Assembly (NCBI GenBank): GCA_023245035.1
Contig: JAHFLD010000004.1
Span: forward strand, 13,496-77,495
Source of the DNA: Candidatus Harrisonbacteria bacterium
GTDB taxonomy: Bacteria > Patescibacteriota > Minisyncoccia > UBA6257 > 1-14-0-10-40-38
DNA: 64,000 nt
Reading direction: 5' to 3'
Positions 89-54,836 of the stretch are shown here, piece after piece. The first letter of the stretch is position 1. Every line of letters begins with the position of its first letter. The translations under genes were made by a program, and so were the position numbers. Under the pieces are notes generated by a model that saw only the letters and a program-made list of their open reading frames with translations, made no database searches and was not told where the DNA came from.

Positions 89-1222
89 ATGTCGTCTTTG
101 GCCTTGTACCGTAAATATCGCCCCAAGACGCTTCGCGACCTTTTGGGGCAGGATGATGTGGTGACCGTGCTTCGCGCCGCGGCTTCTCGCGACAGTCTGG
201 CGCACGCCTATTTGTTTTATGGTTCGCGCGGGAGCGGCAAGACCACCGCCGCCCGGATTTTGGCCAAGATTGCCAACTGCGAAACCAGAAGACAAAAACC
301 AAGCTTCCGCGCCGAGGGTGAACCGTGCAATGTTTGCGGACAGTGCGTGGTTATCGATACCGGAAGATCTTTAGATGTCGTGGAAATTGACGCCGCTTCC
401 AATCGCGGCATTGATGAGATCCGCAATTTAAAAGAAAGCGTGGCCTTCGCTCCGGTCTCGGGGGCAAAGAAAGTTTTTATTATTGACGAAGTTCACCAGC
501 TGACCAAAGACGCCTTTAACGCCTTGCTTAAAACTCTGGAAGAACCGCCGGCGCACGCCTTGTTTGTCCTCGCTACGACCGAATATGAAAAAGTTCCGGC
601 GACAATTATTTCGCGAACGCAGCGCTTCCATTTTAAGAAAATTCCAATGGCGACGGTTGTTAGAAAGTTGGCGACGATAGTGAGTGCCGAAAAATTCAAG
701 GTTTCTCGGGAGGCGCTCATGCTAATCGCCCGAGCCGGAGAAGGAAGTTTGCGGGATTCGGAGTCCTTGCTTGATCAGCTGACTTCGCTCGAGGACAAGG
801 TTGAGGCGATAACCGTTGAGCGACTTATCGGAACGGTTGGCTTGGCGCGGGTTAGCGAGCTGGCGGATCTTATTTTGAGTGAAAATGTTACCGGTGTCTC
901 TCATTATTTGCGGAACTTTGAAGATTCCGGATTTAATGTTGTTGATCTAAACAAGGAGCTTATTCATTACCTGCGGCGAGTATTGAGCGTGGCCGCCGAC
1001 GCTTCGCTTTTAGATCTCTTCCGCGACGAATTTGGCGAGGATGCCATAGCGACGATCAAGACGCACGCCGCCAAAATCCGCCCCGAACGCCACATTTCTC
1101 TGATTCGCTCGCTGATTCGCGCCCATAGCGAGATGCGCTACAGCCCATTTGCCGGAATTCCTTTGGAGGTCAGTTTGATTGATTTTTTTTCGAGCGGAAG
1201 TTCGCCCCGGGTTAAAAAATAA
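89..1222 (+). CDS. dnaX: DNA polymerase III subunit gamma/tau (short form)
   Basis: Translation matches DnaX. It has the LALYRKYRPKTLRDLLGQ N-terminus, a Walker A motif GSRGSGKTT, and clamp-loader motifs. The start is probably the ATG at 89 (MSSLALYRKYRP) rather than the ORF-track start at 56. Confidence 0.9.
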   Translation: MSSLALYRKYRPKTLRDLLGQDDVVTVLRAAASRDSLAHAYLFYGSRGSGKTTAARILAKIANCETRRQKPSFRAEGEPCNVCGQCVVIDTGRSLDVVEIDAASNRGIDEIRNLKESVAFAPVSGAKKVFIIDEVHQLTKDAFNALLKTLEEPPAHALFVLATTEYEKVPATIISRTQRFHFKKIPMATVVRKLATIVSAEKFKVSREALMLIARAGEGSLRDSESLLDQLTSLEDKVEAITVERLIGTVGLARVSELADLILSENVTGVSHYLRNFEDSGFNVVDLNKELIHYLRRVLSVAADASLLDLFRDEFGEDAIATIKTHAAKIRPERHISLIRSLIRAHSEMRYSPFAGIPLEVSLIDFFSSGSSPRVKK

Positions 1223-1787
1223 CTTCTAGGATTATCTTGCGCATATAAAAATATTGCATCCGGTTTTAGGATGTGCTAGCTTTGCAAAAGAAAGCCAGCT
1301 GTGGCTTTTCCAGTTCTTTCCGAATTATTTTTTTGATTTGGGGTGTGTCGATAGACGCGCAAACTTCGAAGTGCCGTCTCGCACCGGCAGTCGGCTCGGG
1401 ACTGTATATTCCGAGCCGGCAACGGAACGGCTTTTGGATCGCGTTGAAGCGCGGTCGCTTCGAGTGTGTATCGACGGGCTCTAATGAGGTGTTGGTGGCT
1501 CCAGATCTAAGCGGGTCAGGCTCGCCGACACCATTTCCCCGTGGCTTATCCAAAGTCGCGGGGATTTTTTTTAAGAGCTAGTAGCGGTGAAAATCTGGAT
1601 AAAAAAACCCGGGTTGTCGCGTTAGCGAAAAACCCGGGCCGAGTGGGGTGTGCCGAAGAAGTAGTTGTGGAGAGCGCCCCCCACCCTCATCGAAGCCGCG
1701 CTTTGCCCGCAGCGGCCCGACGGTGTGCTGGTTTTAGTATTCCAAACAGGGCAGGTTTAATCAAGCTCGGCTATCCACAGATGTTTT

Positions 1788-2660: not shown

Positions 2661-4089
2661 AGCCGGTTGTCTTTTTTTGACCGTAGAAAACTATTATTAA
2701 CAGCGCCGTGAAATAAAAGACCGTGGCGACTCCGCCTATAGAGTTGACCCTGATCGCTCCCTGATGAGCGCTCAAGAACTCAATGATATTGATTTCGGCG
2801 CGAGTGATAATGCTCAAAAATTCACCGGCCAGCCCGCCCAAAATGGCGCTTAGGGAATAAACAGCCAGCGTGACTACGGCAAGGAGCATGGTTATGGGTA
2901 TCAAGGGCAAGATGATGACGTTGGCCAGAATAGAGATGAGTGAAACGGTTTTGAAACTCGCGGCCAAAACCGGAAAGACCACCGCTTGCGCGGCAATGGT
3001 ATTAATCGCATTCTCTCGCCAATGCCAAACTCCGGGATTTGGACCCAGGTAAAAGATTTTACGCAAAGCCGGAGCGAGATAAAAAATGCCGATTAGCGAC
3101 AGAAATGAAAGCTGGAAGCCGAGATCGCCAAGCAGGAGATAAGGATTAGCTAACAGCATCACGCAACAGGTTAGAGCGATGGTGTTGCGCGGACTGTAAA
3201 TCTTTTCCGCGTGCGCGGCGAGTCCAACCACGAGCGCCATAATCGCGGCGCGAATAATGGAGGCATCGGCGCCGGTCATAATCACAAAACCCAGCGCAAC
3301 TAGAATGGTCAAAACAAAGACGCCGCGGCGGGAGACAAGACCAAGCAATGCCACGGCGACTGACTGGATGATGATGGTGATGTTGTAGCCCGACAAGGCG
3401 ACGATGTGACTGACACCAGCCTTGCGGATCGCGTCGCGGAAGTTTTGTGAAAAACCTCCGGTGTCGCCTAAAAGCAATCCGGCGATGAAAGACGATTCTT
3501 TGGTCGGTAAAATCTTGCCGAGAGTGTTTTTGACCACGGTCTGCAGTTCATCCAATCCTCGCTTAATGGCATTGCCGCCCCCGTGGCTTTGAATGGTTAT
3601 TTTGGGAAAGTTTATGGTACCGCTTAATTTGTGGCGGGCGGCGTAGATTATTTTTTCTTCGGATATTGGATTCGCCTTTCCCTCAATTAAAATTTCGTCG
3701 CCGTAGCGCAGGGGCGGACTCTTTCGGGCGAGAATTTCCAGGCGTTCGCTTGGCGAGGCTTTGGTTTGAAAGAGAATGCGTTGTGAGTTTGGACTCTGGC
3801 GCACCTCTAAAACTATTCCGGTAAGATTGCGAGGGATGTCAAAAACGGCGCTTGGATTGCGATTAAAAACTATGGAATATCCTATCGCGTATAGAAACCC
3901 AGCGCCGACTCCGATAGCAATCATGAAGCGCAAAACAACTTTTGAGCGCCAGAGAATAAACTCCGCTATAACGACTCCTAAAATCAGCCAGGGTAAGACC
4001 GACCATGGATTCGCGGGGTTGGCAGTCGCGGCGTAGATACCGCTTACAAAACCCATCATTAGCCAAAAAGCCCTTTCGTGGAGCGGCAT
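2647..4089 (-). CDS. comEC: ComEC/Rec2 competence protein, N-terminal OB-like region plus polytopic membrane competence domain (first part of a split comEC)
   Basis: Multi-TM protein with the ComEC competence-domain architecture. It ends 14 nt inside the next ORF, which encodes the MBL domain normally fused to ComEC. Confidence 0.8.
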   Translation of the reverse strand: MPLHERAFWLMMGFVSGIYAATANPANPWSVLPWLILGVVIAEFILWRSKVVLRFMIAIGVGAGFLYAIGYSIVFNRNPSAVFDIPRNLTGIVLEVRQSPNSQRILFQTKASPSERLEILARKSPPLRYGDEILIEGKANPISEEKIIYAARHKLSGTINFPKITIQSHGGGNAIKRGLDELQTVVKNTLGKILPTKESSFIAGLLLGDTGGFSQNFRDAIRKAGVSHIVALSGYNITIIIQSVAVALLGLVSRRGVFVLTILVALGFVIMTGADASIIRAAIMALVVGLAAHAEKIYSPRNTIALTCCVMLLANPYLLLGDLGFQLSFLSLIGIFYLAPALRKIFYLGPNPGVWHWRENAINTIAAQAVVFPVLAASFKTVSLISILANVIILPLIPITMLLAVVTLAVYSLSAILGGLAGEFLSIITRAEINIIEFLSAHQGAIRVNSIGGVATVFYFTALLIIVFYGQKKTTGYERR

Positions 4090-4166
4090 AAAAATTTTTG
4101 AACGGATGGCGTAGAGGGTTTAGGGTGGAGGGAATTGGAATTTTGCCGACTCGGATGATCGCGTTA

Positions 4167-4694
4167 TTAAAACTCCAGAGCGATTTTGGCCATAACGCCG
4201 TCATTGAAAGGGTGTTTGATTTCGCGCATTTCGGTTACCAGATCGGCGGCTTTTATAAAGGCCTCGGGGGCGTCGCGGCCGGTGAGAATTATGAATTTTT
4301 CTTTGGGGAGTTTTTTGATAACCCCCAAGACTTCATCCGCTGTTATGAGATTTAGATGGGTGGCGTTGTTTATTTCGTCTAAGATAATCAAGTCCCAGGT
4401 ATTTTTTTGAATTTCGGTTTCGGCTTCGCGCAGGGCGGATTCGGCGGCTTTTTGGTGCTCCTCAATCGGGAGCGAGTCGCCTAAAATTCCCACAAAACCG
4501 AGGCCTCGCTTGCGGAGTTCAAACCCGGGCTGGTTTTCCGGTTTTTGGATAATCACCTTATCCTCGCCAGACTTCCACGGCCCTTTAATGAATTGAATCA
4601 TTAAGGCTTTTTTGCCACGGCCAACCATGCGAGCCGCCTGGCCAAGCGCGGCGGTGGTTTTGCCCTTGCCGTTGCCGGTAAAGATGATGAGCAT
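4167..4694 (-). CDS. cobO: cob(I)yrinic acid a,c-diamide / cob(I)alamin adenosyltransferase (CobO/BtuR family)
   Basis: N-terminus MLIIFTGNGKGKTTAALGQAARMVGRGKKALMIQFIKG is the characteristic CobA/CobO P-loop. Confidence 0.8.
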   Translation of the reverse strand: MLIIFTGNGKGKTTAALGQAARMVGRGKKALMIQFIKGPWKSGEDKVIIQKPENQPGFELRKRGLGFVGILGDSLPIEEHQKAAESALREAETEIQKNTWDLIILDEINNATHLNLITADEVLGVIKKLPKEKFIILTGRDAPEAFIKAADLVTEMREIKHPFNDGVMAKIALEF

Positions 4695-52715: not shown

Positions 52716-53015
52716 GGCTTTTCCTCCAATTCTATATAAAAGAGCCGGAATAAGCTATATCATAGATTGTTTTTTCGTGCAACTTTTCCAACCGAAGTAG
52801 CGCTCGCCATCTCCTTTGCAGGCACCGCGGTTTCATTTTCTCCAGCGGAAAATGAACCGCTACCTCTCAACTTAAAAATTTTGACTGCTGTCAAAAACCA
52901 ATCTTTTTAAGTTTCCGAGAGTTGCCCGCCTGTTCGGCGGGCAAGTCCCAAAATACAAAAGTCCTCGCCGGTTATTGTTGAAAAATAGCTCATTTTAAGC
53001 CTATTTTAGGCCTAC

Positions 53016-53045
53016 TTGACAATATTTGGCATAGTATGCTATAGT
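53016..53045 (+). promoter_or_regulatory. Near-consensus sigma70 promoter (TTGACA, 18 nt, TATAGT) heading an ORF-free region
   Basis: CTTGACAATATTTGGCATAGTATGCTATAGT. The same TTGACAATAT box recurs at 60927 and 44425. Confidence 0.5.
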
Positions 53046-53049
53046 GCCA

Positions 53050-53785
53050 TTGTTCGTTGACAACTTCACCCCCCACTTCACCCTCTACCGGAGAACCAAT
53101 GGCCATGTAGTTTTCTAAAATTATTTTGGTCATGAACCATGATCGCCTGGCTTCCGAACACTTCGTTCGGGAGCGGATCTGAACCACCTGCCGTGGAGCA
53201 AGGATTTAGTACGGTGACTTGAAGAGCGCCTAAGAGGCTGGCGCTATGACAGAAATCAGTCCTCTCGTCGCGCGTCATTGGATGGCGCTTGGCGATGGCG
53301 ATTTCGACATCACGAGAACCAACGCAAAGACAGAGAAGGGAAAACGCGATGCCGACGCAGATAAGAGCGCCCGAGGGGCTGGCGCTATAACATAAATTAG
53401 TCTCCCGCCACGCACCAGGCAAGGCTTGGTGATTGGCGGTGGCGTCGCTTACTGATCGATCCTGGCGGTGTAGATGCAAATACGGCGAGAGAGGGTTATG
53501 CGATACCAGCGATGAGCGCCCAGGGAGTTGGCGCTAACACAAGTAAACATCCTTGGTTTAGAATCACCATAAACGATTCTTGGGGATAGACCTCTTGGAA
53601 TCCGTCTTGTCCGCTCCGGCGGACCCGAAGATGGATATTTCATCCAAGCCGTCTGGGCACCTCATTAGAATCACAAGGAACAATCAAACGCTGTTTTTTG
53701 ACCTCACGACTTTGACTTCTTTGGGATTCATGCTCCTAGCACCTTCAGCCCGTGTCGTTTAACCGCGACACGGGCTATTTTTTTT
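53050..53785 (+). ncRNA. Candidate large non-coding RNA (~740 nt) with internal ~145-nt imperfect tandem repeats
   Basis: No credible ORF on either strand. It has a promoter at 53016 and a perfect terminator hairpin GCCCGTGTCG/CGACACGGGC plus T9 at 53748-53785. Three hairpins AGCGCC-N9-GGCGCT lie at 53225, 53366 and 53515. Confidence 0.3.
53748..53785 (+). terminator. Intrinsic terminator
   Basis: 10-bp perfect stem, 7-nt loop, T9. Confidence 0.7.
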
Positions 53786-53834
53786 ATAAGCCGCGACTTA
53801 TAGATCCGGCGATTTTGATATTGCGAAAAACTTA

Positions 53835-54836
53835 TTATTTAAAATTGCTAACCTCGCGATAGGCGATCCGGGAAATACTAGAGATCGCATTTTGCAGAAC
53901 CTTAACTTCCCCGCCCTTGGTCATAACGCAGAGAAAATATGGCTTGGTCGGGGCGTAAACAATTCCGCAGTCGTGAAGTTCAACGGTATTTGAATTTTGA
54001 AGATCGCCATAGACGCCAAACTTGTGCGCGACGGGTATGCCGTTTTCCACTCCGGCGGTGAGGCCATTTTTAAATTGGACTTCGGTGAGAAGTTTGAGAG
54101 CTTGGTCGGATTGTTCCTTGTTTAAGAAGGTCGCGTTGTAGAGAATCCTAAAAAACAAAGAGTAGGTTTTGGCCGAGATGCCGTAGTCGCCGCGAATCGC
54201 GCTCGGGAGTTTGACTCCGAGATCGATAAATACTTCTTTCAAAAAATTTTCACCGATTAGATTAACCAGCAGGTCTTTGGCGCCATTATCGGAATCAACG
54301 ATCATGGAGCGCAGAAGCTGTTCGGTGGTGTAATAAAGACCTGGTTTTAAGGTATAGAAGCCGTCTTTGGCTTGGGGGCTTTCCGGATTTTCGTAGAAAA
54401 CTTTGACGGCGGAAAAATCGGGATCGGACTCCAATCGCTTGAAGTACGCCATCATAATCTGAACTTTGAGCAGACTGGCGGGAATAAATTCCTGATTTTC
54501 GTTAACTCCCATCCAGCGAGCGGCCTCCAAGTCGCGGAAGTAAACCGAGATTTGGCCAACTCGATGAGTGCTAATCTCTTGATCAATAAAATCCTGAACC
54601 TTTTTTTCTAGCGGAGCGAACTCGCGATATTCAATTTGTTCGGCGATATTGCAGGCGAGCAAGGGATTAATGTATTGATACCTGGCATCGCTCGCGCGCA
54701 GGAGGCCGGAATCAAGATAAGGGTCTTTGGCGAGGGCATCTTTAGCGGCAAGATTGCGGCCGATAACAACACCAACGAGCAAAGAAAAACCACAGGCCGC
54801 GATTGGCAATAAGATTCGTTTTAAATTCGCCATCAT
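53835..54836 (-). CDS. Serine hydrolase related to class A beta-lactamases
   Basis: Signal/TM, then an S-x-x-K motif (SLLKV) and an overall class-A-like length. Confidence 0.55.
   Translation of the reverse strand: MMANLKRILLPIAACGFSLLVGVVIGRNLAAKDALAKDPYLDSGLLRASDARYQYINPLLACNIAEQIEYREFAPLEKKVQDFIDQEISTHRVGQISVYFRDLEAARWMGVNENQEFIPASLLKVQIMMAYFKRLESDPDFSAVKVFYENPESPQAKDGFYTLKPGLYYTTEQLLRSMIVDSDNGAKDLLVNLIGENFLKEVFIDLGVKLPSAIRGDYGISAKTYSLFFRILYNATFLNKEQSDQALKLLTEVQFKNGLTAGVENGIPVAHKFGVYGDLQNSNTVELHDCGIVYAPTKPYFLCVMTKGGEVKVLQNAISSISRIAYREVSNFK

Follow-up and report, generated by a model that had tools for sequence, protein, structure and literature searches.

A 64,000-nucleotide stretch of contig JAHFLD010000004.1 from Candidatus Harrisonbacteria (hereafter the window) carries at positions 53052-53785 of its plus strand what is very probably the gene for a highly structured non-coding RNA that is transcribed independently and belongs to a family not described before. 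The RNA has a 5′ domain followed by one or two full modules (~145 nt each), then a terminal module and finally a 3′ domain that is strongly conserved. Each module carries the same GC-rich hairpin, referred to here as hairpin A. Tentatively, these hairpins would make the RNA a trans-acting multivalent platform or decoy, and the explanation as a whole (structured RNA gene plus trans-acting platform) is given an even chance of being right. A preliminary description of the window had already proposed an undescribed large structured non-coding RNA (ncRNA) at this place, and the proposal is now supported by a syntenic orthologue, by compensatory base changes and by the lack of both a conserved reading frame and an Rfam match. 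Few bacterial ncRNAs of conserved structure exceed ~500 nt, and OLE, GOLLD, ROOL and HEARO have each led to unexpected biology. To our knowledge almost nothing has been reported on the regulatory RNAs of ultra-small, reduced-genome groundwater bacteria; a literature search on that subject found nothing relevant.

Transcription unit and orthologue

The unit is bounded by the two signals named in the preliminary description, a near-consensus promoter and an intrinsic terminator, and both are borne out. The sigma-70-type promoter (53016-53045, plus strand) has a −35 box TTGACA at 53016-53021, an 18-nt spacer and a −10 box TATAGT at 53040-53045. It agrees with the consensus at 11 of 12 positions and an upstream TG makes it an extended −10 promoter, from which a transcription start near 53052 is inferred. 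The intrinsic terminator (53747-53785, plus strand; earlier placed at 53748-53785) is formed by a 12-bp stem with eight G-C pairs and a 6-nt loop (53747-53776), followed by eight U residues. The stretch between promoter and terminator comes to ~735 nt.

A metagenome scan with the pattern GAGCGCC-N8-TGGCGCTA-NN-ACA returned 64 loci, only one of which, L077, resembles the window RNA by blastn and nhmmer. L077 is a 10-kb contig (Hain-H43-01um) from 0.1-µm-filtered Hainich groundwater. It has the gene order ATPase-GreA-57aa-157aa-...-RNA-...-PGI-LexA in common with the window, and its RNA is likewise framed by a promoter, TTGACA-18-TGcTAGATT (3677-3648, minus strand), and by a conserved terminator (3082-3053) with two wobble-compatible changes. 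The two species are 80-86% identical at the amino-acid level in PGI, LexA and GreA. Four-fold degenerate sites, which are 48-62% identical, serve as a neutral yardstick. Against this yardstick the 3′ domain of the RNA, at 72.5% identity, is well above neutral; the 5′ domain is 58.3% identical, the modules 53-59%, and the sequence just past the terminator 46%. Comparison of homologous intergenic regions from relatives, as the preliminary description had suggested, thus yielded a single orthologue with compensatory changes in its helices, so that both conservation and covariation are seen, in two species.

The remaining 63 metagenome matches lie in coding sequence (e.g., encoding a WRYHKP motif) or in unrelated hairpins. 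L062 and L091 were inspected as possible homologues and rejected. In L062 a look-alike hairpin, GAGAGCGCC-UUUUAGGU-UGGCGCUAAGACAUAAAU, is found just past a long open reading frame (ORF; ~340-385, minus strand) and shows no similarity beyond the motif. Scanning of genome contigs with a double-hairpin pattern gave 26 loci, all of them unrelated G+C-rich tandem repeats; this pattern is palindromic, matches both strands and is too unspecific. Viral contigs scanned with the hairpin motif and two conserved 3′-domain blocks gave no match, nor did a distant-mode blastn search of phages and plasmids. Assemblies of the window region from other samples represent the same strain at 99.9-100% identity. Among strain variants of both species the RNA is either unchanged or not covered, the sole single-nucleotide polymorphism being C>A at 53293. 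Three short same-strain contigs from other samples (L102, L104 and L101) end at 52929, 53147 and 53532, inside or beside the RNA gene, and the internal repeats may be the cause of these breaks.

Domains, modules and coding potential

The three hairpins AGCGCC-N9-GGCGCT that had been reported at 53225, 53366 and 53515 are all exact, and no further exact match occurs in the 64 kb. When one mismatch is allowed the window contains four matches against 0.26 expected, a count reached in none of 100 shuffles. The loops read TAAGAGGCT, CGAGGGGCT and CAGGGAGTT in the DNA and the hairpins are followed on the 3′ side by ATGACA, ATAACA and AACACA. Both sets of shared blocks described earlier, TGGCG(A/G)TGGCG and GAGA(A/G)GGG...GCGAT(G/A)CC, are present as well. 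The hairpins are spaced 141 and 149 nt apart, and a repeat search gives a 40-nt family at those spacings. The earlier claim of 2.3 tandem repeats with a period of 141-149 nt therefore holds for the spacing, but the repeat is not called by Tandem Repeats Finder. The program misses it because identity between the first two modules, which also differ by indels, is no more than 65.9% and because similarity in the third unit is limited to about the first 45-70 nt.

Module R1 (53222-53362, plus strand, 141 nt) begins with hairpin A (53225-53245, loop UAAGAGGCU), continues through an A-rich linker and hairpin B (~53265-53299) and includes a purine block, GAGAAGGG...GCGAUGCC. Module R2 (53363-53511, plus strand, 149 nt) has hairpin A at 53366-53386 with the loop CGAGGGGCU, a hairpin B and the block GAGAGAGGG...GCGAUACC. 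The terminal module R3 (53512-53581, plus strand) consists of hairpin A (53515-53535, loop CAGGGAGUU), a UCCUUGG tract at 53549-53555 that may pair with the loop of this hairpin A, and a second hairpin, AGAAUC/GAUUCU, at 53560-53580. The latter and its counterpart in L077, GGAGUUUUU/AAAAACUUC, were recognised by visual inspection of the sequences; the hairpin is missing from the consensus fold of the 3′ part because the alignment misplaces it. L077 has two hairpin modules (U1 and U2) where the window has three. Identity is 65.9% between R1 and R2, 58.4% between R1 and U1 and 52.7% between R2 and U1, which points to a duplication in the lineage of the window as the source of the extra module. 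Judged from these two sequences, module number is evolutionarily labile.

Across the five copies of hairpin A (R1-R3, U1 and U2) the consensus is GA(A/U)GAGCGCY, an 8-9-nt loop ending in U, and GGCGCUA-NN-ACA. The 6-bp stem has changed at only 1 of 60 positions, by a C to U substitution that retains a G.U pair. The loops vary (UAAGAGGCU, CGAGGGGCU, CAGGGAGUU, CGAGGCACU and UGGGGAGU), with a GAGG or GGAG core in each. Outside hairpin A the modules drift at a near-neutral rate (53-66% identity) while their helices are kept. The fold of the full modules R1, R2 and L077-U1 comprises the invariant hairpin A, a covarying hairpin B and a long-range closing helix; it contains 29 pairs, six of them compensatory, and some cells are broken.

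Compensatory change is also found in both flanking domains. The 5′ domain (53052-53221, plus strand) starts with the conserved leader GUUCGUUGACA (53052-53062) and contains the blocks ACUUCAC, GGAGAA, AUGUAG and AUUUUGGUC. Its consensus fold for the window and L077 (RNAalifold) has 23 pairs with six compensatory changes. The 5′ hairpin at 53150-53174 (plus strand), GCU-CCGAAC-ACUUC-GUUCGG-GAGC, has nine pairs, five compensatory and two changed to wobble, with none broken: the stem CCGAAC/GUUCGG of the window becomes UGAGGC/GCCUCA in L077, and the loop ACUUC is kept. The conserved 3′ domain (53582-53746, plus strand) is built on a long interrupted helix in which GGGGAUAGACCUCUUGGAA (53582-53600) pairs with CCAAGCCGUCUGGGCACCUCAUUAGA (53644-53669), followed by two further helices. 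All 26 nt of CCAAGCCGUCUGGGCACCUCAUUAGA are identical in L077, and the tip of the long helix is variable and covarying. Over the whole 3′ part (53512-53790, hairpin A and terminator included) 61 pairs are formed, with seven compensatory changes, nine one-sided wobble-compatible changes and no broken pair. Controls in which the partners were slid by 1-3 columns gave 0-1 compensatory pairs with 32-45% of cells paired, and the observed value was reached in 2 of 500 shuffles. The minimum free energy (MFE) z-scores against shuffled controls are −3.5 for the window RNA and −3.1 for L077.

The 5′ domain has several features of its own. A 12-nt direct duplication, ACTTCACCCCCC / ACTTCACCCTCT, lies at 53063-53086; L077 contains ACUUCAC only once and lacks the C-run. 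The MFE fold of the window RNA pairs CCCUCU of this region with the GAGAGGG block in R2. A conserved arrangement GGAG...CCAAUG...UAG follows at 53086-53108 (~3615-3595 in L077), reading AUG-GCC-AUG-UAG in the window and AUG-UAG in L077. It is possibly a start-stop mini-ORF or a plain conserved RNA motif, AUGUAG.

These data bear on the proposal that there is no functional RNA at all, and that the segment is either a decaying duplication or pseudogene, or a set of palindromic operators (AGCGCC-N9-GGCGCT) for a dimeric DNA-binding protein. Hairpin A is a perfect palindrome in the DNA, the interiors of the modules evolve almost neutrally and the distribution is very narrow, as such a proposal would have it. 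However, the many helices preserved by compensatory change, the conservation of promoter and terminator on one strand and the 3′ domain identity above the neutral yardstick all speak against it. The lone substitution in the stem gives a G.U pair, which fits pairing in RNA and breaks the palindrome in DNA, and no protein similarity is seen in any frame. Absence of a functional RNA is therefore highly improbable.

The preliminary description had found no credible ORF in the region. Mechanical ORFs do exist, one of 133 aa on the minus strand (53078-53479), one of 49 aa (53246-53395) and one of 60 aa (53580-53762), but none is conserved in L077, and the description stands in that sense. The 133-aa ORF, the sole one scanned against Pfam, has no match there. 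A tblastx comparison of the window RNA with the L077 RNA yields nothing longer than short fragments, which fall in all frames and switch between them, and a six-frame translation of the region finds nothing among 5.8 billion proteins at E values up to 1. The region could alternatively be an mRNA encoding one or more small proteins, with the 49-aa ORF as an example. Its AUG at 53246 is 8 nt past the AAGAGG loop of the R1 hairpin A, which resembles a Shine-Dalgarno (SD) sequence, and it is called as a gene on two contigs, though uncalled on other assemblies of identical sequence. Against this, the other four units have AUA or AAC in place of the AUG, both start codon and frame are absent from L077 and from the paralogous modules, the indels between copies are not multiples of three, and no homologue occurs in the protein search above. 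A small-protein mRNA is accordingly the least credible of the explanations considered, with hardly any probability left to it.

Proposed function of the repeated hairpins

A stem that is invariant in sequence, not merely in pairing, and that is present in variable copy number is what would be expected of repeated docking sites for a single partner. In the mechanism proposed, the invariant hairpins A would each dock one sequence-specific partner. The loops resemble SD sequences, and the partner could therefore be an RNA-binding protein (e.g., one that binds ribosome binding sites (RBS)) or the anti-SD sequence of the 30S subunit. The role of the conserved 3′ domain would lie in folding, in stability or in a second partner. 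On this basis a trans-acting multivalent platform or decoy is the favoured, though tentative, reading. In its widest form the proposal makes the RNA the first member of a novel class of large, modular ncRNAs that belongs to candidate-phyla-radiation-like bacteria. The invariant GC hairpins would recruit several copies of the partner, and valency would be tuned by gain and loss of modules. This extension is speculative.

The main alternative is a different use of the loops. The purine loops of hairpin A may pair with pyrimidine tracts 12-15 nt downstream and form pseudoknots of the H type, the third loop being A-rich. In that case the RNA would be a self-contained ornate fold, that is, an RNA-only architecture, ribozyme or ligand-binding element and not a sponge. 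R3 (CAGGGA/UCCUUG) and L077-U2 (UGGGGAG/UUCCCUG) share a common register, and the changes between them keep the pairing (C-G to U.G, A-U to G.U and G.U to G-C). The duplex energies beat those of shuffles in the terminal modules R3 and U2 (p ~0.03 each), where a pseudoknot is plausible, R1 offers AGAGG/CCUCU, and the folding z-scores are strongly negative. However, the duplexes are not significant in R1 (p = 0.13), R2 (0.48) and U1 (0.30), and composition alone allows purine loops to pair with pyrimidine tracts. In the RNAalifold model hairpin B claims part of the tract, and neither a riboswitch nor a ribozyme of Rfam is matched. Such a fold is rather unlikely as the explanation of the repeats.

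The loops could also act directly as SD mimics, with their GAGG/GGAG sequences titrating the 16S anti-SD of the 30S subunit or an RBS-binding translational repressor and thereby tuning translation globally. A 4-nt SD core is present in five of five loops although the other loop positions vary, and the R1 AUG 8 nt past AAGAGG resembles a translation-initiation region. However, the RNA as a whole shows no clear enrichment of GAGG/GGAG (7 against 6.3 expected in the window, 8 against 4.7 in L077), the start-like codon is not conserved and pairing with the anti-SD needs no invariant stem sequence. SD motifs are in addition only weakly enriched upstream of the ORFs of this genome, which lowers the appeal of an RBS mimic. 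SD mimicry is thus improbable.

The multivalent platform has to be weighed against several reservations, to which the weak SD usage just mentioned belongs. Two or three sites are few for a sponge, and the loops of the terminal modules may be buried in an intramolecular pseudoknot. Among the neighbouring genes, Pfam and PADLOC scans give no informative match and no candidate for the partner protein. The RNA is carried by two species, so that the covariation comes from one pairwise comparison together with the internal paralogues, and each alignment was used both to derive a consensus structure and then to score it.

Genomic neighbourhood

Upstream of the RNA the window encodes a P-type ATPase, GreA, a 57-aa gene and a 157-aa gene, the last on the minus strand and divergent from the RNA. 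Downstream a convergent beta-lactamase-like gene (53835-54836, minus strand) is followed by PGI and LexA on the plus strand. L077 has no beta-lactamase-like gene between the RNA and PGI. It has instead, between the 157-aa gene and the RNA, a 228-aa ORF (3937-4623, plus strand) without a Pfam match and with its own promoter at L077 3801-3830 that agrees with the consensus at 11 of 12 positions. The stable part of this plastic locus is thus the RNA unit, on both sides of which genes have been gained or lost. The named homologues of the beta-lactamase-like protein belong to Candidatus Doudnabacteria, which together with the filtered-groundwater origin of the related contigs indicates a host that is probably of the CPR/Patescibacteria type. 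No homologous RNA is found in the contexts of the homologues P0005, P0006, P0007 and P0011.

This arrangement can be used to judge whether the RNA controls pgi-lexA in cis, as a leader or attenuator. PGI begins ~95 nt past the end of the RNA in L077, both being encoded on one strand, and the window has the same strand order. However, a leader is unlikely because the 1-kb beta-lactamase-like gene, on the opposite strand, intervenes between terminator and PGI in the window and because PGI has a conserved block upstream of its own in both species. In addition, the unit ends in a 12-bp G+C-rich terminator with U8, for which no antiterminator complementary to the 5′ arm was found by eye upstream, its length of 600-735 nt is far beyond that of known leaders, and no riboswitch aptamer or T-box model is matched. 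A riboswitch, T-box or attenuator leader was rejected on these grounds and is given very little probability.

Other elements were observed nearby. In L094 (~1525-1725, minus strand) a promoter-terminator unit of ~170 nt is convergent with a 54%-identical homologue of the beta-lactamase-like gene, a position that corresponds to that of the large RNA in the window. The promoter and start of the unit (TTGACA-N18-TGCTAGACT-GUGUUCAGUACGUU) and its GGCCUUGAGGAUUUCGC block resemble GGCUUUGAGGCACUUCGC of L077. The unit could be a reduced relative of the large RNA or an unrelated small RNA (sRNA). Between the 157-aa gene and the RNA promoter of the window there is a nested hairpin, AACUUAAAAAUUUUGAC-UGCU-GUCAAAAACCAAUCUUUUUAAGUU (52869-52913), which in the relative (L029 ~1005-955; L077 upstream of 5214) reads GACGUAAAAAUUUCGAC-UAAA-GUCGAAAACCAAUCUUUUUACGUC. 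Both of its helices show compensatory changes (CUU/AAG to CGU/ACG and UUUGAC/GUCAAA to UUCGAC/GUCGAA). This makes it a second conserved structured element of the locus, which may serve as the 5′ untranslated region or as a regulator of the 157-aa gene. Next to it, at 52912-52975, lies a single copy of a unit consisting of CCGAGAG, a GC hairpin GUUGCCCGCC...GGCGGGCAAG and, further on, AGUCCUCGCC. The Hainich relative (L029 ~690-960, minus strand) has about four tandem copies of this unit, each of ~60 nt. The AGUCCUCGC motif of the unit resembles the AGUCCUCUCGUC tract within the RNA modules.

Comparison with known RNA families

Rfam 15 cmscan of the whole window yields nothing at the gathering score. 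With E values up to 10, region 52800-53900 and the L077 copy give only terminator-like sRNA matches of 15-19 bits and a GOLLD match of 10.5 bits, far from the gathering score of 150 and located upstream of the promoter, outside the transcript. The preliminary description had asked for comparison with OLE, GOLLD, ROOL, HEARO, raiA, CsrB-like RNAs and group II introns, and none of these Rfam models matches either copy significantly. Neither copy matches tmRNA, RNase P, 6S, signal recognition particle RNA, a riboswitch, a ribozyme or a T-box in Rfam, and ARAGORN finds no tmRNA in the window, only two tRNAs, both elsewhere. A literature search found no description of such an RNA.

Several specific assignments were rejected. 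The 'spacers' of a supposed CRISPR array would be 120-128 nt long and mutually homologous; a match to CRISPR-DR28 is an 18-bit chance hit on an unrelated upstream hairpin. A kink-turn of the L7Ae type fits only R1 (GGCGC-UAU-GA), since R2, R3, U1 and U2 have AA, CA, CA and AA at the position of the G.A pair. A LexA box, GAAC-N5-GTTC at 53155-53168, is not conserved in sequence in L077.

Type III antitoxin RNAs such as ToxI and CptI are built likewise, from tandem repeats that are flanked by a promoter and a terminator and may fold into pseudoknots. However, the period here is 141-149 nt as opposed to ~34-45 nt, the repeats are only 53-66% identical and no toxin gene follows on the same strand; the next gene in the window is the convergent beta-lactamase-like gene, and PADLOC reports nothing for the neighbours. 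This assignment was rejected too. The possible succession of a hairpin, an A-rich linker and a loop-pairing tract recalls the H-type topology of tmRNA and of preQ1-I/SAM-II-type pseudoknots, here in repeated form. In contrast to tmRNA there is no tRNA-like domain and no tag ORF, and unlike preQ1-I/SAM-II the RNA lacks an aptamer consensus, an expression platform and a downstream gene. The support for the pseudoknot is marginal.

Like OLE, GOLLD, ROOL, raiA and HEARO, large ornate ncRNAs whose functions are unknown or only emerging, the RNA is 600-735 nt long, densely folded into conserved structure, transcribed as a unit of its own, non-coding and restricted to a lineage. It differs in that neither its sequence nor its structure matches theirs and in that internally repeated modules are foreign to those classes. 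Nor does it have a phage or tRNA association or an IscB gene nearby, and no gene for an OLE-associated protein was recognised among the scanned neighbours.

The CsrB/RsmZ sponges are likewise stand-alone RNAs with their own promoter and Rho-independent terminator, and they too carry repeated hairpins with purine-rich, SD-like loops in numbers that vary between relatives. A CsrB/Rsm sponge proper, the obvious candidate for the protein-sequestering RNA that the preliminary description had suggested as one possibility, was rejected: GGA is present in only two of five hairpin A loops (R3 and U2) and is not enriched in either RNA (14 against 12.1 expected in the window, 10 against 9.2 in L077). Six-frame translations of the 64-kb window and the 10-kb L077 contig, a portion of the genome, contain no CsrA-like motif. 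In contrast to CsrB/RsmZ there are only 2-3 sites, set on 145-nt modules, and the invariant part is the sequence of the stem and not the loop. The locus is a concrete, testable target with defined ends, a repeated motif and a natural comparison of two with three modules, and it presents a credible new class of large ncRNA in a poorly studied lineage. If the reading as a multivalent recruiting class is true, the RNA would be a regulator at the level of translation or of ribonucleoprotein assembly unlike CsrB, OLE, ROOL or GOLLD.

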